Positions 27,164 through 61,916 of a stretch of DNA of 64,000 bases are shown piece after piece. The stretch's first letter is position 1. Each line of letters starts with the position of its first letter. The notes below the pieces were generated by a model. That model worked only from the letters and a program-made list of their open reading frames with translations, ran no database searches and had not been told where the DNA came from. The stretch is from an uncultured Chloroflexia bacterium (GTDB taxonomy: Bacteria; Chloroflexota; Limnocylindria; QHBO01), in NCBI GenBank assembly GCA_963787025.1, contig CAWBBG010000009.1, forward strand, positions 7,765 to 71,764. The letters run 5' to 3'. Position numbers and translations under genes: made by a program.

Positions 27164-28114
27164 TCAGCCGGCCAGGAGCCGCCCGACAATCAGCTCGCTG
27201 GCCGCGACGTCCTGGATGGCGAGGCCGACGCTCTTGAAGATCGTGACCGCCGCCGGATCCCGGCCTGCGGCCCAGTCGCGCTCCAGCGTGCCGATCTCCA
27301 CGTAGCCGTCATCGGAAAGATGGCCGGCGCGCAGGGCCGCCACCAGGTCGCCCGCCTCGGCGAGAGCGGCCTCGCGGGCATCGACCGCTACCAGCGCCGC
27401 CCGTCCGAAGAGCGCGGGTGGGATCTCGACCATGTCCAGCCGGAAGGCGCCCACGCCGTTGACGTGCGTTCCCGGGTCGATCCATGCTGCGTCGAAGATC
27501 GGCTCGGTCGCGGTGGTGGCACAGCAGATCACGTGTGCACCGCGCACGGCGGCCTCGGCCGAGACGCTGGCGATGACCTGCACCGCGGACCCGAGCTCGG
27601 CGGCCATCCGCGCGGCGAAGGACTCGCGCGCCGCCGCCGTCCGCGCGTACACCCGGAGCTCGCGGATCTCTCGTGCGGCACAGACCGCGCGGACCTGCCA
27701 GGCTGCCTGTCCGCCACAGCCGAGGAGAGCAAGGATCGAGGCATCCATCCGCGCCAGCAGCCGGGTCCCGACGCCGGAGGCGGCGCCCGTGCGCATGGCG
27801 GTCACCTCCGCACCGTCGAGAATGGCCAGCGGCTCTCCCGTGAAGGCGTCGAACCAGGCGATGACGGCCTGGACGGTGGGCAGGCCGCGGCCGGCATTCG
27901 CCGCCACCACCGTCACCAGCTTCACGCTGCTGCCCGCGCCACCATCGCGGATGCCCGGCATGAGCAGCAGGTCGCCGTTCGGAAGCGGCACACGGCTTCG
28001 CACCGGCGAGCGGTCGCGCCCGGCCGCGACGTCGCGGTAGGCCGCCTCTACAGCGTCGAGCAGCGCCGGGGCGGGGGTCACCGCACGGATGGCGTCCGCG
28101 TCGAAGGTGCGCAT
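27164..28114 (-). CDS. Ornithine cyclodeaminase / mu-crystallin family protein
   Basis: LLLMPG, VKLVTV...N..RGLPT, TAMRTGAASG, GCGGQA, PGTHVNGVGA, IFKSVGLAIQDVA. Confidence 0.92.
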   Translation of the reverse strand: MRTFDADAIRAVTPAPALLDAVEAAYRDVAAGRDRSPVRSRVPLPNGDLLLMPGIRDGGAGSSVKLVTVVAANAGRGLPTVQAVIAWFDAFTGEPLAILDGAEVTAMRTGAASGVGTRLLARMDASILALLGCGGQAAWQVRAVCAAREIRELRVYARTAAARESFAARMAAELGSAVQVIASVSAEAAVRGAHVICCATTATEPIFDAAWIDPGTHVNGVGAFRLDMVEIPPALFGRAALVAVDAREAALAEAGDLVAALRAGHLSDDGYVEIGTLERDWAAGRDPAAVTIFKSVGLAIQDVAASELIVGRLLAG

Positions 28115-28216
28115 CCACGGAGTCTAGCCCGCCCCCGCCGGAGCCCGACGGGCGGTGAGCGCCGGCGACGACCGACGGTCGCCAGGGAGCGGGGCATCGG
28201 GTAGCATGCCGCGACC

Positions 28217-40822: not shown

Positions 40823-41124
40823 CGGTGCCCCTCAAGACAGGTGCAGCCGGCGGGCCCCACCACCGCCGAATGGCGCGTCCCCGCCGGCAGGACGAATCCC
40901 TCCCCGGGGTGAAGCTCCAGCGCCGCGCCGTCGTCGAGCAGGAAGCTGATGGAGCCCGCAGCGCACATGAGCAGCTTGGTGAAGCCGTGCTCGTGGGCGG
41001 CGTACCGATCACCGGGCCCGTTCGACCAGGCATACGGCTCGACACCGGCGGCGCGCAGGAACCGCTTGACCGAGGTGCGATCCGGCGTCTCCCCCGCCGG
41101 CAGTCGAAGCGACTCGAGGCTCAT
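40819..41124 (-). CDS. Cupin domain protein
   Basis: WSNGPGDRYAAHEH, LELHPGEGFVLPAGTRHSA; ATG overlaps the upstream TGA. Confidence 0.85.
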   Translation of the reverse strand: MSLESLRLPAGETPDRTSVKRFLRAAGVEPYAWSNGPGDRYAAHEHGFTKLLMCAAGSISFLLDDGAALELHPGEGFVLPAGTRHSAVVGPAGCTCLEGHR

Positions 41125-42870
41125 TTGACGACGAGGACGGCGTGGCCCTCCAACCGGCCCGAGTCGACCCTGCCTGCCGCGGCAAGGTAGTCGAACGGCG
41201 CGATCCACTGGCCCGCGGCCTGCGGGATCGTCGATGCCCATGGCCCCTTCGACGGCTGTGCGGATTGCAGCGAGGTCGAGCCAGGTCATCCCGGTGTTCG
41301 ACGCTCCGCCGACCGCATCCACCGCAGCCTTGAAGCGCGCCTGTTCGGCGAGCGAGTCCGCGGCGGTCATGTCGAGCACCCGGGCCACGAAGGAAGTGCC
41401 GGTCCCGATCACCACCCGCGTGTCGGTCACCGCGTACTGGATCGTCCCGGCCCACTGTTCGGCCGCCGGCACACCCGCGAAGGTGATGGTCGTGATCCTC
41501 GTCCCACCGTGATCGGTGTCGGTCACCGTCACGGCCGGGCCACCGCCCGAGCCGCTCAGCTGCAGGAGACCCTGGAGCTGGAGCAGGCGGACGCTCGCCT
41601 CGTGCGCATCGGTGGGGGTGATGATGATCCCCGCGTACGGCTCGCTTTCGCTGATGCCGGCCACGATTGCCGCGTCGCCGATCCACGACACGACCGACGA
41701 CAGATCGCCCCCCAGGAGCGACTGCAGCTGCTGGAGCTGGTCGGCCGGTACGCTCGTTCCCAGGGCCTGTGTCAGGGCGCCCATCGACGCGGCCAGGCTG
41801 GTGCCGACGTTACCGGCATCCGCGAACAGGAAGGCGTCCGCCGGCGCGGCCGCCGCAAGCCCGTAGTCCCGGTTCTCGAGGCTTGATCCGCTGGGCAGCG
41901 CGCTGCTCTCGTCCATCACCAGCCGGTCGCCCTCGATGCGCGCGCTGCCCATGAAGAACTGCGAGCCCTGGGCGCTCAGCGCGTCGAAGAGCGAAGCCGC
42001 GGACGGAGCAGCCGACGCGATCGCCGGCTGCAGCTGATCGAGGATGGGCGCCGTGTCGACGCTGAATGTCGCCACCCGATCTGCCGGGAGGCGCGCAAGC
42101 CCGTCCTTGAACTCCTGCCGCCCCGCGAGCGACGGTTGGCTGCCGGCATGGACATCGAGCGCAGAGGCCACCAGGTCACTGCTGGTGCCCACCACGACCT
42201 CGTCATCGGTCACCGTCCAGGCGAGGGCCAGGCTGATGCCGGCGGACGACGTGGGTGGCAGGGACCAGATCGTGAAACCGCCGTGGGTGGTGCTGCTGAT
42301 TCCAGTCGCGCCGCTCCCCGTTCGAATCCGGTCGAGTGCGCTGCGCGCCGCCTCGGCGTCCTTGACGCCGGCGAACACGAGCATATCCGGCATGGCGGCC
42401 GCCGCCTGTGTCGGGTTGGTGATCTTCGGCCATCCGATCATGGCCGCAGCCAGGCTGCCGTCGAACCAGGGCTTCAGATCCGTCGTGTAGTGCAGGCCGC
42501 TCGGCTGGGCGGACGCCCCGCCGTCAAGCAGCGTGTCCAGCCCGTCGCCGAGGATCGTGCTCGCCGCCTGGTCCGGGAAGTGGCCCAGGAGCGTCTCGAA
42601 GTTCGTCCGCTGGTCGCCGGGGAGGTCAAGCCGCAGCTCGTAGTACATGGAGGCATTGGCCGGCACGTACCCGGCGGCGGCGCTCGCGGCGCCCCCGGTG
42701 CGCCGGCTGTTGATGGTGAACCCCGCGACGAGGCCAATCAGCATGGCGAGGACGACGACGGCAACGACGGCGGCCACCAGCCAGCGCGGCCGCGCCGTGG
42801 CACGGGACGGCCGGCCCATCCCCATGGGCTCCGGCCGTGGCGTCTGCGGTGGTAGCGAGTCGGTGATCAC
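41121..42870 (-). CDS. Membrane-anchored DUF3352-like protein, frameshifted near 41225
   Basis: GGAGG then GTG at 42870; TM helix; AAAGYVPANA.MY.E, DLKPWFDG; C-terminus WIAPFDYLAAAG...HAVLVVK* in the adjacent frame ends at 41121. Confidence 0.75.
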
Positions 42871-43037
42871 GTGTGTCCCTCCTGTCATGGACCGCGCGAC
42901 CCCCGGGGGTCGCCGGGACAGCATAGGCCGGTTCGGCCGAGGGCGCGCATCCCCCAAAGGTCACGATCCGGCGGGCCTGCGGCGGGGTGCTAGAGTCCAC
43001 CCTCCGCGCCCAGCCTGCTCGCCACCACGGAGGATCG

Positions 43038-43883
43038 ATGCCCGAGCCGACCGGCCCCTTCGTGCTTGCCGGGCTCGCCTCCGCGGCATCGTTCGGGGCC
43101 GGAGACTTTGCCGGCGGACTCGCCACGCGACGGGCGAGCGGCCTGGCCGTGGCAGCCGGCGCCCAGCTGGTGGGATGCGTGCTCCTGGTCGGCCTGCTGG
43201 CCGTCGTCCGACCACCGGCTCCCGGACCGTCGTCGCTCGCCCTGGGCCTGGCGGCGGGCGTGGTCGGCGCGATCGGGGTCGCGTCGCTCTACCGCGCGCT
43301 TGCCATCGGCGCGATGGGGCTGGTCGCCGCCGTGTCCGGCGCTGGGACCGTGGCGGTTCCGCTCCTGGCGAGCCTCTTCCTCCTGGGCGGCGGCATCCGC
43401 CCCCTTCAGCTGGGCGGCGTGGCCTGCGTGGTCGCCGCCGTGCTCGCCGCGAGCGGCGCGGCGCGGAGCCGGGCCTCGCGCAGGGCCATTGGCCTGGCAC
43501 TCCTGGCCGCCCTGGCCTTCGGCTTCTGGTACGTGCTGCTCGACCGCGCGGCAGCGGCCGAAGGGCTGTGGGCGCTCACCAGCAGCCGCGTTTCCGGGAC
43601 GGCGTTCATGCTCGTCCTGGCGGGCCTGCGGGGAAGCCTGTCCTCCATCCGACGCACCCGTTTGCTGGTGACCACCAGCGGTGCCTTCGACGTGACCGGC
43701 AACGCCCTGTTCGTCCTCGCACGGGGCGGGCTACCGGTGGGGCTGGCGGCAGCCCTCTCGGGCATCTATCCGCTGGTCACCATGCTCCTGGCCCGCACGG
43801 TCCTGGGCGAGCGGCTGCCACGCCTCGGGTTGGCCGGCGTGGCCCTTGCCCTGGCGGGGATCGTCCTGATCTCGATCGGTTGA
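43038..43883 (+). CDS. EamA/DMT family transporter
   Basis: GGAGG RBS; FGAGDFAGGLATRR, D.TGNALF, LSGIYPLVT.LLAR.VLGERL; about 10 TM. Confidence 0.88.
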   Translation: MPEPTGPFVLAGLASAASFGAGDFAGGLATRRASGLAVAAGAQLVGCVLLVGLLAVVRPPAPGPSSLALGLAAGVVGAIGVASLYRALAIGAMGLVAAVSGAGTVAVPLLASLFLLGGGIRPLQLGGVACVVAAVLAASGAARSRASRRAIGLALLAALAFGFWYVLLDRAAAAEGLWALTSSRVSGTAFMLVLAGLRGSLSSIRRTRLLVTTSGAFDVTGNALFVLARGGLPVGLAAALSGIYPLVTMLLARTVLGERLPRLGLAGVALALAGIVLISIG

Positions 43884-43949
43884 GAAGACAGTCGTTGGCG
43901 GTCAGCCCCCTAAGCGGGGAAGCCGCTTCCGTTGGTGACCGTGGGGCGT

Positions 43950-43990
43950 CGTGCGGGGCGTGGCCGTGCGGGGCGGGGTCGTGCGGGGCG
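43950..43990. repeat. Three 15-bp-period copies of CGTGCGGGGCG in the intergenic region
   Basis: Copies at 43950, 43965 and 43980, preceded by a partial CGTGGGGCG. Confidence 0.75.
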
Positions 43991-44137
43991 ACATGCGGAA
44001 TCCTCCACGGTGGCGCGGCCCGGTGCCTGTCACCGGTCGACACACCACGAGCCAAGGAGACCGCTGCGGCCCTTATCTGCCGCTTACCGCGCGCTTACTC
44101 GACCCGCCCCATCGGCCGCTATGATGCGAATCGCCCC

Positions 44138-46406
44138 ATGACCTTCGACCGCGTCGCCATCGTCTCCGGAGCGCTCGACGCCTTCCTGGCCGAGGTCCGC
44201 CCCGCGACGGCCACGCTCGCGCGGGACGCGACGCTCCGCCCGGGGGGATCGCTCACCGTGCGACGCGCCATCGGGCTCTTCGAGGACCAGGTCGCCAGCC
44301 GCGTTCTCGACGTGGCCTCCCGGGAGCTGAAGAAGACCGACCGCAGCTTCTACACCATCGGCTCGGCCGGCCACGAGAACAACGCCGTGCTGGGCGCACG
44401 GCTGCGGATCACCGATCCGGCCTTCCTCCACTACCGCTCCGGTGCGTTCATGATGGCCCGCGCCCGGCAGCTCCCCGGTTCGACGCCCGCTCTTCGACAC
44501 CCTCCTGGGGATGGTTGCCTCCTCCGAGGATCCGATCGCCCAGGGACGGCACAAGGTCTGGGGCAGCCGCGCCCTCTGGGTGCCGCCGCAGACGTCGACC
44601 ATCGCCAGCCACCTCCCCAAGGCCATGGGCCTGGCGTTCTCGCTGGCGCGCGCGCGGCGGCTGGGCGTCGGGGGCGAGTTGCCCGCCGACGCCATCGTCA
44701 TGGCCTCCTTCGGCGACGCGTCGGCGAACCACGCCACCGCCCTGTCCGCGTTCAACACCGCCCGCTACGCGGCGAAGATCGGCCTGCCGATGCCCATCCT
44801 CTTCGTCTGCGAGGACAACGGCACCGGGATCAGCATGCCCACCCCGGCCGGCTGGATCGCCGAGACCTTCGCGAACCAGCCGCACCTGCGCTACTGGCAC
44901 GCGGAGGGCGAGCTCGACGAGATCTGGGAGACCGCCGGGGAGGCCATCGACTTCGTGCGCAACGCGCGCCGTCCGGCCTTCCTGCACCTGCGGACCGTGC
45001 GGCTCTGGGGCCACGCCGGAAGCGACGCCGAGCACGTGTACCGCGAGCTCCACGAGATTGCCGCGATCGAGGCCCGCGACCCTGTCCTCCACAACGCGCG
45101 ACGCCTGGTCGAGTCCGGCGCCGCCACGCCGGATGAGCTCAAGCGTCTGGTCCGCGACCTGCGTGAGCGGGTGGCGGCCGCGGCGGACGAGGCCGCGCGC
45201 CGGCCACGCCTCACGACCACGACGCAGGTGATCGCCACGCTGGCGCCCGATCACCCGGACCGCGTCGCGACCCGTGCCGCCCTGCCGGTGCTCGATGCGG
45301 ACGCGCGGCGCGCGGCATGGGAGGGATCCCTGCCGGAGGACGCCACCGCCCCGAACGCGCACACGCTTGCCGGGCTCATCAACGCCGCGCTGGCCGACGA
45401 GATGGCGCGCCGTCCGGAGATCATCGTGTTCGGGGAGGACGTGGCCCGCAAGGGCGGCGTCTACAACGTGACCCACGGGCTCCAGCGCCGCTTCGGCGCG
45501 GGGCGCGTGTTCGACACGCTCCTCGACGAAACGTCGATCCTGGGGATCGCCCAGGGGGCGGCCCACATCGGCCTCCTCCCGATCCCCGAGATCCAGTACC
45601 TGGCCTACATCCACAACGCGCTGGACCAGATTCGCGGCGAGGCAGCCTCGCTGCAGTTCTTCAGCTCCGGCCAGTTCCGCAACCCCATGGTCGTGCGCAT
45701 CGCGTCGCTCGCCTATCAGAAGGGGTTCGGCGGCCACTTCCACAACGACAACAGCATTGGCGCCCTGCGCGACATTCCCGGCCTGGTGATCGCCTGCCCG
45801 TCACGCGGCGACGATGCCGCCCGCATGCTCCGTGGTGCGATCGCCATGGCCCTCGAGGACGGGCGGATCGTGGCCTTCCTGGAGCCGATTGCCCTCTACC
45901 ACGAGAAGGACCTCCAGGAACCTGGCGACGCGGGCTGGCTGTTCGCCTATCCGCCGCCCCCGGAGGTGCTGCTGCCCGGCGAGGTGGGCGTCTACGAGCC
46001 CGATGGCGCCGCCCCCGACGATCGCGCGGACATCCTGCTCGTCAGCTACGCCAACGGCCTGCGCCTCTCGCTGCAGGCCCAGCGACGCCTGGCAGCCGAA
46101 CATCGCGTGCGCGCCCGCGTCATCGACCTGCGCTGGCTGAACCCGCTCCCCGTCGCGGCGCTGCGCGAGGCGGCGGAGCATACCGACGCGGTGCTGGTCG
46201 TGGACGAGTGCCGCGCCACCGGCGGTGGCGTGGCCGACGCGATCATCGCGGATCTCGCCGAGCACCGGGCCGGCGATCGGCTGGCATCGGTCCGCGCGTT
46301 CGACTCGTTCGTGCCGCTAGGCCCGGCCACTGAGACGGTCCTGGTGGGCATCGACCAGATCATGGCCGCGGCGCTCGCCGCGGTGCCGGGGGGGACCGGC
46401 GCATGA
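44138..46406 (+). CDS. ThDP-dependent 2-oxoacid dehydrogenase E1, fused alpha+beta, frameshifted near 44490
   Basis: FYTIGSAGHE, HYRSG, FGDASAN...CEDNG ThDP motif, GHAGSD, VFGEDV, DTLLDE, EIQY, HFHND, FLEPIALY. Confidence 0.9.
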
Positions 46407-47413
46407 GCCGCGCGCTCCTCGTTTTCCCCGGCCGCGGGTCATACACGTCGGCCAGCCTGGGGTCGCTCGATCCTCACCAGCCCCTGGTTCGGCAGGCGGA
46501 GGAGATCCGGGCCCGCTACGACCTGCCCTCGCTGGTGAGCCTCGACGCCGCCGAGCGGTTCGATCCCAAGGTCCACCTGGCACCGGCGAACGCCTCCCCG
46601 CTCACCTACCTCGTGTCACTCATCGACGCCGGCACCCTCCCGCCCGAGACGGAGCCGGTGGTGGCGGTCGGCAACTCGCTGGGCTGGTACACCGCGCTCG
46701 CGGCCGCCGGCGCGCTCTCCTTCGAGGATGGGTTCCGCCTCGTCCAGGAGATGAGCCTGCTTCAGGAGGCACCCCTGCCGGCCGGCGGTCCGGGCGGCCA
46801 GGTCATCTATCCCGTGGCCGGCGCCGACTGGCGCCCGGACCCGACGCTGGAGGGCGCCATCATCGGAGCCCTGCGCGGCGCCGAGCTGGCGCACGTGCAG
46901 GCGCATCCCAGCATCGACCTGGGCGGCTACGCGGTCCTGGCCGGGGACGAAGCAGGCGTGGCGGCGCTCATCGAGCGGTTGCCGCCCGTGCATATCGGCG
47001 AGCGCCTGTATCCCCTTCGCCTGGCCCTCCACGGGCCGTACCACACGCCGCTCGTGGAACACGTGTCCATAGAGGCCCGGGAGCGCCTGGCCGCGCTCAG
47101 CTGGCAGCTGCCGCGCATCGCGCTGGTCGACGGGCGTGGCGTGCGCTGGTCCCCCTGGTCCACGGACCCGGCCGCCCTCCGCGACTACACGCTGGGCGAG
47201 CAGGTCACCACGCCATTCGACTTCGCGACCGCGGTGCGGGTGGCGCTCCGCGAGTGGGCGCCGGACCGGCTGGTCCTGCCGGGACCCGGCAACTCGCTGG
47301 GGGGCATCTGCGGGCAGATCCTGGTTCGCGAGGGGTATCGGCAGATCCGCAGCCGTGCCGACTTCGAGGCGGTCCAGCGCTCGAGCCCGCTCATCCTCTC
47401 CATGCGCCGATGA
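46403..47413 (+). CDS. FabD-like (ACP S-acyltransferase fold) protein
   Basis: ATGA overlap with E1; VFPGRGS, GNSLGWY, GPYHT, LPGPG. Confidence 0.85.
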   Translation: MSRALLVFPGRGSYTSASLGSLDPHQPLVRQAEEIRARYDLPSLVSLDAAERFDPKVHLAPANASPLTYLVSLIDAGTLPPETEPVVAVGNSLGWYTALAAAGALSFEDGFRLVQEMSLLQEAPLPAGGPGGQVIYPVAGADWRPDPTLEGAIIGALRGAELAHVQAHPSIDLGGYAVLAGDEAGVAALIERLPPVHIGERLYPLRLALHGPYHTPLVEHVSIEARERLAALSWQLPRIALVDGRGVRWSPWSTDPAALRDYTLGEQVTTPFDFATAVRVALREWAPDRLVLPGPGNSLGGICGQILVREGYRQIRSRADFEAVQRSSPLILSMRR

Positions 47414-48352: not shown

Positions 48353-49627
48353 CTACAGGAAGTGGATCCTGCGCGCGGCGTGCTCCAGCTCGTCGCGGAA
48401 GTCCGGGTGGGCGATGGCGATCAGGGCCCGCGCCCGCTCGGCGATGCTCCGGCCGTGGAGCTCCGCGACGCCCCACTCGGTCACGATGGTCCGAGCGTGC
48501 GCCCGGGTCGTCACGACGCCCGCGCCCTCGCGCAGGAACGGGTGCGATCCGCGAGATGGTTCCGTTCGACGCGGTCGAGGGGAGCGCGATGATGGCGCGG
48601 CCCTCCGGTGCCAGCGAGGCGCCCCGCACGAAGTCCATCTGGCCGCCGACGCCCGAGTAGAAGCGCGGACCGATCGAGTCGGCGACGACCTGCCCGGTGA
48701 GGTCCACCTCGATCGCCGAGTTGATGGCCGTCATCCGGCGCAGCTTGCGGATGACCGCGGTGTCGTTGGTGTAGTCGACGCCGCGCATCTCGACCATGGG
48801 GTTGCGGTCCACGAAGTCGTAGAGGCGCGACGTCCCCATCACGAACGTGGCGACCATCTTGTAGCGGTTGATCTCCTTCGCCGCGCCGGTCAGCGCGCCC
48901 GCACTCCACGAGGGGCAGGACCGCGTCGGTGAACATCTCGGTGTGGATCCCCAGGTCGTGCTTGTCGGTGAGCGCCTGGGCGGCCGCGGACGGGATGGCC
49001 CCGATGCCCAAGCTGCAGGGTCGCCCCGTCCGGCACGAGCTCGGCGATGTGCTCGCCGATGCGCCGCTCCACCTCGCCGATCGGCGGCTCCGGCACCTCG
49101 TAGGGCGGCTGGCTCACCTCGGTGGCGAAGTCGATCTGGGAGACGTGGATGCAGCTGTCGCCCATGGTGCGCGGCATCTGGTCGTTGAGCTGGGCGATGA
49201 CCGTCTTCGCGCTGCGCACCGCCGCCAGGTTGGCCAGGACGCTGGTCCCCAGCGAGCAGAAGCCGTGGCGGTCGGGGGTGCTGACGTTGAGGAGCACCGC
49301 GTCGAGCGGCATACGCCGCTGGCTGAACAGGTCCGGCACGTCGGAGAGGAAGACCGGGATGTACTGGGCGCGGCCCTCGTTGACGGCCTGGCGCGCGTTC
49401 GGACCGATGAACAGGGCCTGGTGGAGGAAGTGGCCCTCCATCTCCGGCGCGAGGTGCGGCGCGGGTCCCTCGATGTGGAAGTGTGCAATGCGGACGCCCT
49501 CGAGCTCATCCGCGCGGTCGACCAGCGCCTGGAGGAGGACCGAAGGCGTCGCGGCGGCGTCGTGGACCCAAAGCTGCTGCCCGGAGGCAATGGAGGCGAC
49601 CGCCTCCGCGGGGCTGACGATCTGCAT
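48353..49627 (-). CDS. Acetyl-CoA hydrolase / 4-hydroxybutyrate CoA-transferase family protein; frameshifts near 49015, 48895, 48545
   Basis: STPDRHGFCSLGTS, VPDGATLQLG-IGAIP, LGIHTEMF, INSAIEVDLTGQV.ADS, SGVGGQMDF.RGA, VTTRAHARTIVTEWG, IAHPDFR. Confidence 0.9.
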
Positions 49628-60291: not shown

Positions 60292-61539
60292 TCAGGCAAG
60301 GATCCGCCGGTCCGCCTCCGTGGCCAGCACGCCGCCTATCGCCAGCGAGGCGGTCGCGGCCGGCGACGGGGCATTCAGCACCCGCAGGACACGACGCGTG
60401 CCGCCCAGCCGGAAATCATCCACGAGCGATCCATCGGGATCGATCGCCTGGGCGCGGAGCCCGGTCGGGCCGGGCAGGAGGTGCTCGTCGCGCAGCTCCG
60501 GCACGAAGCGGCGCACCGCGGCGGCGAAGGCCGGCTTCCACAGGTCGCGCCACTGCTCGGCGGCGCCCACCCGCCAGAAGCGATACGCCAGCCGCCGAAA
60601 TCCCGGGTGACCCAGAACCCCCACCACGTGACGGAGATCGACATCGCGACGGCGGTAGCCGGCGCGAGACAGGGCAAGGACCGCGTTGGGGCCGGCCCAC
60701 ACCGCGCCGTCGATCCGTCGCGTGAGGTGGACGCCGAGGAACGGGAAGCGCGCGTCGGCGACCGGATAGATCAGGCCGCGGACCAGGGGTCGCGCGTCGT
60801 CGCGGAGCCGGTAGTAGGCGCCGCGGAACGGGACGATCTTCTCGGGGTCCCGGCTGCGCGCGGCCACGGCCACCACGTCCGCCCAGAGCCCGGCACAGGT
60901 GACGACGCCGTGGCAGGCGATGGTGGCCGATGTGGTGGCCACCACGACCTCGTCCGCCCGCTCGTCCACGCGCAGGACCTCCTGGCCCGTGAAGATGGCG
61001 CCCCCGGCGCTACGAACATCGTCGGCGAACGCCCCGGCGACCTCCCTATAGTCGACGATGCCGGTGGTTGGTGACCGGAGCGCCCGAAGCCCCACGGCAT
61101 GCGGCTCGTGCTCGCGGATGCCGGCTTCATCGAGGGTCTCCAGCCCCGGGACCCCGTTCGTCCGCGCCCGCCGCTCCAGCTCGGCGAGGGCCGCGAGCTC
61201 CCGACGCTCGACGGCGATCACGAGCTTGCCGACCTGCGCCAGCGCGATGCCCCGCTGGCTGCAGTAGGCCTCGAGCAGCCGCTTGCCCTCCACGCACAGC
61301 CGCGCCTTCGCGGACCCGGGCTGGTAGTAGAGCCCGGCATGCACGACTCCCGAGTTGCGCCCGGTCTGGTGCGTGGCCAGCGCCGGCTCGCGTTCCAGGA
61401 CGACGACCGATCGCTCCGGGTGGCGCAGGAGCAGCTCGCGGGCCGTGGCGAGACCCAGGATGCCGCCGCCCACGATGACCAGGTCGGCCCGTGACGGAGG
61501 GGCGGCCGATGCGGGGGGAGCGGATGCAGATGGTGCCAT
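60292..61539 (-). CDS. lhgO: L-2-hydroxyglutarate oxidase
   Basis: IVGGGILGLATA, HQTGRNSGVVHAG.YY.PGS.KA, PFRG.YY, YPV.D.RFPFLGVH.T, GLRAQA, NAPSPAATASL.IG. Confidence 0.93.
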   Translation of the reverse strand: MAPSASAPPASAAPPSRADLVIVGGGILGLATARELLLRHPERSVVVLEREPALATHQTGRNSGVVHAGLYYQPGSAKARLCVEGKRLLEAYCSQRGIALAQVGKLVIAVERRELAALAELERRARTNGVPGLETLDEAGIREHEPHAVGLRALRSPTTGIVDYREVAGAFADDVRSAGGAIFTGQEVLRVDERADEVVVATTSATIACHGVVTCAGLWADVVAVAARSRDPEKIVPFRGAYYRLRDDARPLVRGLIYPVADARFPFLGVHLTRRIDGAVWAGPNAVLALSRAGYRRRDVDLRHVVGVLGHPGFRRLAYRFWRVGAAEQWRDLWKPAFAAAVRRFVPELRDEHLLPGPTGLRAQAIDPDGSLVDDFRLGGTRRVLRVLNAPSPAATASLAIGGVLATEADRRILA

Positions 61540-61613
61540 GGGCCCAGGAGTATGCGCGCGACATCGGCATTCGGACTGCCCTGCGGCTCCGCCTCGGCTA
61601 GACTTTGGCGGCG

Positions 61614-61916
61614 ATGGCTGACAACGACCGCATCCTCACCCGGGTCCAGCTCCAACCGACCCAGATCGAGCTGGACAAGCAGCTCCTCCGCGACGAGGAC
61701 CTCCTCAACGAGGAGCATCTTCGGCGCATGGACCAGGTGCTCCTGCGCCGCAACCTGGACCACGCGCGGATGTTCAGCCGGAAGCTCTCACTGGAGCTCC
61801 AGAACTTCGTGCACCTGTACACGCCGGAGGCGAACGAGCTCCGACGGCGCATCGAGAAGTACATGGTGATGGAGCGCCTGATCGAGAAGGAGATGGCGCG
61901 CCGCCATAGCTACTGA
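61614..61916 (+). CDS. Helical hypothetical protein (100 aa)
   Basis: Strong GC3 bias with charged, non-shadow amino-acid composition; clean ATG-TGA. Confidence 0.8.
   Translation: MADNDRILTRVQLQPTQIELDKQLLRDEDLLNEEHLRRMDQVLLRRNLDHARMFSRKLSLELQNFVHLYTPEANELRRRIEKYMVMERLIEKEMARRHSY

Follow-up and report, generated by a model that had tools for sequence, protein, structure and literature searches.

A fused E1-type thiamine diphosphate enzyme coupled to a FabD-fold acyltransferase in an uncultured Chloroflexota bacterium and its relatives

Why should a gene for the decarboxylating E1 component of a 2-oxoacid dehydrogenase overlap a gene that resembles the fatty-acid enzyme FabD, with the customary partners of neither enzyme beside them? 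The locus that raises this question lies in a 64,000-nt stretch of contig CAWBBG010000009.1 from an uncultured Chloroflexota bacterium (72% G+C; hereafter 'the window'), where a fused alpha-beta E1 dependent on thiamine diphosphate (ThDP) is followed by a Ser-His acyltransferase of the FabD fold (Table 1). An earlier reading made from the sequence alone had picked out the pair by its ATGA overlap, which we find as described, and had proposed a lipoate-independent route in which an acyl unit passes from ThDP to the transferase serine and on to coenzyme A (CoA), an acyl carrier protein (ACP) or a small molecule. Comparative analysis indicates that the two genes form a dedicated unit, and leads us to a different and tentative view of how the acyl group might travel.

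The association of the two genes is remarkably strict. We scanned 80 loci, 44 belonging to a Chloroflexota group (mostly Chloroflexota/Limnocylindria metagenome-assembled genomes, MAGs) and 36 to Planctomycetota, and at 78 of them the fused E1 immediately precedes the acyltransferase, an adjacency far beyond chance; of the two exceptions one is truncated by a contig end and the other, L071, is taken up below. The 4-nt overlap between E1 stop and transferase start recurs across phyla (71/81 loci), and the same arrangement is found at L094, L099, L100 and L101, of which three are metagenomic loci at a greater distance and one belongs to the cultured gammaproteobacterium Zooshikella ganghwensis. 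On a eukaryotic contig (L095:6418-10111; 64% G+C, with septin and metacaspase genes) E1 alpha-beta and the FabD-like transferase are a single intron-bearing gene, in which the E1 C-terminus and the transferase share one continuous frame across a linker of about 50 residues and the introns fall elsewhere; an acyl-CoA dehydrogenase gene adjoins the fusion in divergent orientation. Because adjacency is strict, the 4-nt overlap conserved and the two proteins fused in a eukaryote, sequence comparison leads us to conclude that E1 and acyltransferase are one dedicated functional unit. A further candidate fusion, P0203, has Transket_pyr running straight into the final two-thirds of the transferase; we set it aside as an apparent assembly chimera. 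Literature searches on such a pairing, on lipoate-independent 2-oxoacid dehydrogenases and on bacterial 2-oxoadipate E1 turned up no description of the pair, in keeping with the earlier reading, which knew of no characterised pathway for it.

The unit is concentrated in one lineage and scattered beyond it. Of 40 genomes in the window's family, all small at 1.8-3.0 Mb, 38 encode the transferase; none of 80 genomes from other families of the class does, and among Planctomycetota it occurs in 19 of 151 sampled genomes (about 13%). This patchy distribution suggests horizontal spread. No third partner is conserved around the pair in Planctomycetota, where the flanks vary and the commonest neighbours, DUF2807 and HD proteins, occur at 7 loci. 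Across about 85 related loci, in any lineage examined, no lipoyl, E2 or E3 gene adjoins the pair, nor does an ACP, ketosynthase (KS) or fab gene accompany it. At one distant locus a 1007-aa PP-binding/AMP-binding/PlsC-acyltransferase (Aas-like) protein is encoded directly upstream (L099:144-3164), a possible link to lipids.

The acyltransferase belongs to the FabD fold without being an ordinary FabD. It aligns end to end with the FabD model TIGR00128 (E=1.4e-16) at 60.8 bits, short of the cut-off of 260.9, and also with MdcH (NCBIfam); PF00698 (Acyl_transf_1) gives 12.6 bits against a threshold of 32.7, and no Pfam domain exceeds its threshold. A profile of 17 family members nonetheless matches FabD crystal structures with E ~1e-18, and an AlphaFold2 (AF2) model (pLDDT 89.8) has the predicted large alpha/beta and small ferredoxin-like subdomains of that fold, being matched by Foldseek to FabD structures at E=2e-18, TM 0.72-0.78 and 20-25% identity. 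In the profile alignment the catalytic Ser92 (46676-46678) and His214 (47042-47044; FabD His201) are kept, as is the ACP-docking Arg190 position (Arg201), whereas three FabD positions are replaced throughout the family: Gln11 by Arg, His91 by Asn and the malonyl-binding Arg117 by Met. G-N-S-x-G-W-Y, R-L-V-Q and H-G-P-Y-H-T-P are invariant in the family alignment, and the motifs singled out before any search was run (FPGRGS, GNSLG, GPYHT, LVQEMS) are all present in the sequence. The two residues preceding the catalytic His set acyl specificity in related acyltransferases (polyketide acyltransferase motifs); at this point the window protein has GPYH and that of Zooshikella AAFH.

At least 1920 homologues of this protein exist, mostly annotated 'ACP S-malonyltransferase', and the protein defines a family of its own, with about 157 clusters at 50% identity (E<=1e-30). 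An identity as canonical FabD was rejected on the score far under the cut-off, the Met in place of Arg117, and the two true fabD genes that stand elsewhere in the genome beside fatty-acid genes. To judge by these features the transferase is probably not a malonyl-CoA:ACP transacylase, in agreement with the sequence-only reading.

E1, for its part, has kept the apparatus of its class. Besides the three Pfam domains listed in Table 1, it retains GDA...EDN as ThDP/Mg motif, an alpha-His in WGHAGSD (which aligns with GHHS of human BCKDHA), a beta-His in FHNDNS (which aligns with LHSDS of Geobacillus and HHSQS of Thermus) and the ThDP-activating beta-Glu in DETSILG (which aligns with SEAAIVG). The alpha- and beta-histidines of E1 act in the reductive acylation of lipoamide. 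Domain searches of E1 and transferase found no oxidant domain, flavin or Fe-S, in either.

One feature had been overlooked: as assembled, E1 is not a single open frame. Its N-terminal 116 residues (MTFDRV...QLPGST), which hold the first ~100 E1_dh positions, are read in frame from 44138 and the remainder in the frame of the 44511 ORF (open reading frame), an extra base near 44489 dividing the two. At this site the window reads ACGCCCGCTCTTCGAC where relatives read ACGCCC-CTCTTCGAC, with exactly one gap in every blastn alignment (n=8); in a second rendering, ACGCCCGCTCTTC stands against ACGCCC-CTCTTC in the eight relatives. Orthologous E1 genes are uninterrupted, unlike the window copy. Nor is E1 the only gene affected, since the CoA-transferase gene downstream is broken into four frame segments and a DUF3352 gene (~41124-42957, minus strand) changes frame at ~41234 and continues into a cupin gene, giving at least five frame breaks across three genes in 9 kb, with each segment 64-93% identical in amino acids to intact orthologues. 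Identity to relatives is 82-92% on either side of the E1 break, and the frame segments of the broken genes contain no in-frame stops or other decay. The second E2 catalytic domain of the genome (C18:3694-4225) is likewise divided between two frames, likely through a further assembly indel. The nearest relatives are Chloroflexota MAGs whose contig_N-style names look like those of long-read assemblies, and several show E1 broken at other positions. A programmed frameshift was rejected, since the extra base is missing from every relative and the site offers neither a slippery sequence nor a stop context. Because none of the eight aligned relatives has the extra base and the neighbouring genes are frame-broken too, the E1 frameshift is most likely an error of the assembly consensus and not the mark of a dead gene.

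Whether the pair can be self-sufficient depends on what the rest of the genome supplies. Domain searches of the contig that carries the window (C9) found no E2 catalytic domain, lipoyl domain, ACP or E3, and Pfam scans of the remaining window ORFs likewise found none of these, so that the window is indeed without them, as first stated. The claim of 'no E2/E3' holds for window and contig, but it fails for the genome: the source MAG (2.34 Mb, 81% complete) carries a canonical Lpd-E1a-E1b-E2 cluster on contig C15, with LipA ~3 kb past the E2 gene, a second E1b/E2 on contig C18, and one ACP. A further enzyme, encoded on contig C21 (~127000-130700), is OdhA/Kgd-like: its 1234 residues unite an E2o succinyltransferase domain and a SucA-type E1o, no lipoyl domain was found in it, and it must therefore use lipoyl arms in trans. 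Actinobacterial OdhA, which relies on E2p lipoyl domains, is a precedent for such use, and the E2o-E1o 'two-in-one' architecture has been described as actinobacterial (PMC10415282); here it occurs in a Chloroflexota MAG.

The mechanism that we favour, tentatively and at a little under an even chance, is that the acyltransferase substitutes for an E2 core while lipoyl arms are borrowed from the genome's own E2. The fused E1 would bind ThDP, decarboxylate a 2-oxoacid and reductively acylate a borrowed lipoyl arm; the FabD-fold partner would then become acylated at Ser92, His214 serving as base, and deliver the acyl group to a thiol, most probably that of CoA, in a thioester-to-Ser-to-CoA ping-pong that takes the place of the E2 core, after which the genome's E3 would reoxidise the arm. 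Ping-pong between two pantetheine thiols is normal FabD chemistry, and a borrowed lipoyl arm is the most conservative account of where the two electrons would go. What we infer is which way the acyl group flows, that CoA receives it and that lipoyl arms are borrowed; because the genome has both the C15 E2/E3 operon and an OdhA-like enzyme without a lipoyl domain, borrowing is at least as plausible as lipoate independence. Several points weigh against this scheme. None of the lineages examined, the eukaryotic fusion included, encodes a lipoyl domain within the pair or next to it; we know of no FabD-type transferase that accepts an acyl group from dihydrolipoamide; if E1 loaded the E2 of another complex, that core might finish the reaction itself, leaving the need for the transferase unexplained; and L071 is a genuine orphan, a transferase with no E1.

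The lipoate independence first proposed would have acyl-ThDP, formed on a classical E1 scaffold, captured by Ser92 and handed to CoA, ACP or a small molecule, and it draws on the same absence of lipoyl, E2 and E3 genes beside the pair in every lineage, on a eukaryotic single-chain fusion with no room for a lipoyl domain, and on a coupling tight enough to hint at direct hand-over. Phosphoketolase, pyruvate oxidase and pyruvate:ferredoxin oxidoreductase (PFOR) offer parallels, in that a nucleophile intercepts acyl-ThDP. A serine, however, is unable to accept the two electrons released as the ThDP enamine becomes an acyl group, and for that reason a direct ThDP-to-serine route needs either an oxidant that we do not see or a substrate that keeps the reaction redox-neutral, for which a 2-oxoaldehyde, an alpha-diketone or a 2-oxoacid bearing a beta-leaving group would be examples. 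Neither protein has a flavin or Fe-S oxidant domain, E1 keeps both histidines of lipoamide acylation, and the genome has lipoate synthesis (LipA) and lipoylated E2s, so that we regard the proposal as unlikely. A third arrangement would divide the pair's labour, E1 working with the canonical E2/E3 encoded elsewhere and the transferase acting later, as an acyl-CoA:ACP or carrier transacylase that supplies an unusual primer for lipid or polyketide synthesis. FabD-type enzymes do normally transfer acyl groups from CoA to ACP, the Arg190 equivalent is kept, the genome has E2, E3 and one ACP, and a PP-binding/AMP-binding/PlsC-type protein lies directly upstream at the distant locus mentioned above; yet about 85 loci show no ACP, KS or fab gene alongside the pair, two canonical FabD genes already stand beside the fatty-acid genes, and fusion to E1 alone, and not to E2 or ACP, would be hard to explain. 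We think this division of labour very doubtful.

Two further alternatives concern the substrate of the module and its survival in this genome. That it converts 2-oxoadipate to glutaryl-CoA in the degradation of lysine or tryptophan is suggested by Zooshikella ganghwensis, in which a true glutaryl-CoA dehydrogenase (GCDH; 611 bits to 3gnc) directly precedes E1-transferase, by the acyl-CoA dehydrogenase adjoining the eukaryotic fusion, and by a GCDH ortholog in every one of the 19 Planctomycetota genomes that have the transferase, as against 54 of the 132 without it, an association that could nevertheless be phylogenetic. In the window's family, by contrast, no GCDH ortholog was found in 60 genomes, the best match (39% identity, 235 bits) falling below the Planctomycetota orthologs (at least 333, mostly >400 bits) and the best matches being butyryl-CoA-dehydrogenase-like; moreover, at none of the 80 Chloroflexota and Planctomycetota loci does an acyl-CoA dehydrogenase gene stand closer than 6 kb to the pair, and the pocket motif differs from that of Zooshikella. 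For some clades 2-oxoadipate is a plausible substrate, but in the window's lineage that reading is unsupported, and for the module as such we judge it distinctly unlikely. As for survival, the assembled E1 could not be translated as a single protein and the nearby CoA-transferase and DUF3352 genes are broken too, as would be expected were E1 a genuine pseudogene and the module decaying in this genome. We give this only a slim chance, given segments free of in-frame stops or decay, the level of identity kept on both sides of the break, and retention of the module in 38 of 40 genomes of the family; several breaks per 9 kb in a 2.3-Mb genome fit consensus errors better, as do the breaks at other positions in relatives with long-read-like contig names.

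Around the pair, the order EamA, E1, transferase and AlkA-like HhH-GPD characterises the operon in the window's Chloroflexota family (Table 1). The HhH-GPD gene is downstream in 38 of 44 Chloroflexota-type loci, a contig end cutting some of the others, and was not found at the Planctomycetota loci, which makes this DNA-glycosylase-fold protein an operon member in the window's family only. The CoA-transferase gene that converges on the operon is found at 15 Chloroflexota loci, and an intact 423-aa orthologue of it scores 302 bits on TIGR03948. Farther off, 13-17 kb from the pair, the window carries an ornithine-cyclodeaminase/mu-crystallin family gene (27167-28123, minus strand) and a DAO-family FAD oxidoreductase gene (60295-61635, minus strand); lysine cyclodeaminase and pipecolate oxidase belong to families of these kinds, and at such a distance we claim no link.

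Table 1. Features of the E1-acyltransferase locus, in window coordinates
Feature	Position	Strand	Basis and remarks
EamA-family transporter gene, kept upstream neighbour in the window's Chloroflexota family	42987..43883	+	Pfam EamA; synteny
Conserved block AAGGAGACCGC with three CTTA[CT]C repeats (44072, 44083, 44094; 11-nt spacing) and TAT[CG]AT (44120-44125)	44054..44126	+	37-region alignment
Fused E1 alpha-beta ThDP enzyme gene	44138..46406	+	E1_dh, Transket_pyr, Transketolase_C (Pfam); ~756 aa on read-through; intact orthologues 752-765 aa
Single-base insertion shifting the E1 frame by +1, near 44489	44486..44492	+	blastn against 8 relatives
ATGA overlap of E1 stop and acyltransferase start (translational coupling)	46403..46406	+	Sequence
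FabD-fold Ser-His acyltransferase, 336 aa	46403..47413	+	NCBIfam, profile alignment, AF2, Foldseek
ATGA coupling of acyltransferase to HhH-GPD gene	47410-47413	+	Sequence
AlkA-like HhH-GPD glycosylase homologue, 300 aa	47410..48312	+	Pfam HhH-GPD; NF007641 E=1.2e-9
Family-I CoA-transferase gene (butyryl-CoA:acetate CoA-transferase-like), convergent with the operon, four frame segments	48356..49627	-	Pfam AcetylCoA_hydro + AcetylCoA_hyd_C

Upstream of E1 the conserved block in Table 1 is promoter- or operator-like by its sequence, with a TAT[CG]AT element that is invariant in the alignment of 37 upstream regions. In most relatives the block can be read as a TTA(C/T)CA-17 nt-TATCAT promoter, possibly accompanied by an array of operators, while in the window TATGATG opens a mini-ORF of six codons (MMRIAP) whose TGA overlaps the E1 ATG. 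The block has no Rfam match, a riboswitch having been looked for, and a scan for consensus promoters and terminators did not pick it up. Between EamA and E1 there is also a conserved micro-ORF (43902-43994, minus strand, in the window; also at L017, L018, L020, L022, L023, L026 and others), with a strong Shine-Dalgarno sequence (GGAGG, 5-8 nt, ATG), whose product at most loci is an 18-aa peptide with HTGGGWP[ATSG] at its end; among the nearest relatives of the window that end is VTNGSGFP[LG]. One Gly codon shows each of the four bases at its wobble position, which argues that the ORF is coding, and its product is possibly a peptide precursor. The window's own copy does not share the frame of the conserved C-terminal block, and it has three GTGCGGGGC repeats.

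Textbook 2-oxoacid dehydrogenases consist of E1, E2 and E3, and a FabD-fold serine transferase in the place of the E2 core would, if our reading is right, be a new architecture, on which thousands of 'ACP S-malonyltransferase' annotations would stand to be corrected. Were lipoate independence true instead, the pair would add a further route from a ThDP intermediate to an activated acyl group beside the lipoyl-E2 complexes, PFOR, pyruvate oxidase and phosphoketolase; only then would the system be categorically new, and otherwise it would be of 2-oxoacid dehydrogenase type with a non-homologous acyltransferase. In either case the module is widely spread, being near-universal in one Chloroflexota family and present in part of the Planctomycetota, in a gammaproteobacterium and as a fusion in a eukaryote, and Zooshikella ganghwensis is a cultured organism that carries it.

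Each half of the pair can be set beside its closest known counterpart. The heterotetramer-type E1 enzymes (alpha2beta2) of the branched-chain 2-oxoacid and pyruvate dehydrogenases (BCKDH and PDH) have the same three domains, ThDP/Mg motif, Glu, alpha-His and beta-His as the window E1, whose nearest solved structure is the branched-chain E1 of Thermus thermophilus (1um9). They differ in that alpha and beta are fused in the window, where the scores of ~138 bits (beta) and 62 bits (alpha) fall far under the NCBIfam cut-offs, and in that the partner gene encodes a FabD-fold protein in place of a lipoyl-E2, with no E3 nearby. FabD itself (TIGR00128; 1mla, 3h0p) shares fold, Ser-His dyad and full-length collinearity with the window transferase, which in turn lies outside any fab cluster and has Gln11, His91 and Arg117 replaced.

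Three further systems offer parallels to the pair as a whole. In the OdhA/Kgd 2-oxoglutarate dehydrogenase (PMC10415282) an E1 and an acyltransferase are likewise linked without a lipoyl domain of their own; but there a CAT-fold E2o core is joined to a SucA-type E1, whereas here a FabD-fold serine enzyme accompanies an alpha/beta-type E1, and in bacteria the two are on separate chains. What the window's genome shares with it is an E1-coupled acyltransferase lacking a lipoyl domain, with lipoylated E2 and E3 encoded elsewhere, a resemblance by analogy and not by homology. The 2-oxoadipate dehydrogenase complex (DHTKD1 as E1a, with shared E2o and E3) also employs an extra E1 without its own E2, but DHTKD1 is of SucA type and needs no extra transferase, and the window's family is without GCDH. 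Finally, in the QncN/QncL/QncM glycolicacyl-ACP cassette an E1/transketolase-like ThDP enzyme loads a carrier outside the classical complexes; that cassette retains a lipoyl-E2-like protein and an ACP, neither of which stands beside the window pair.

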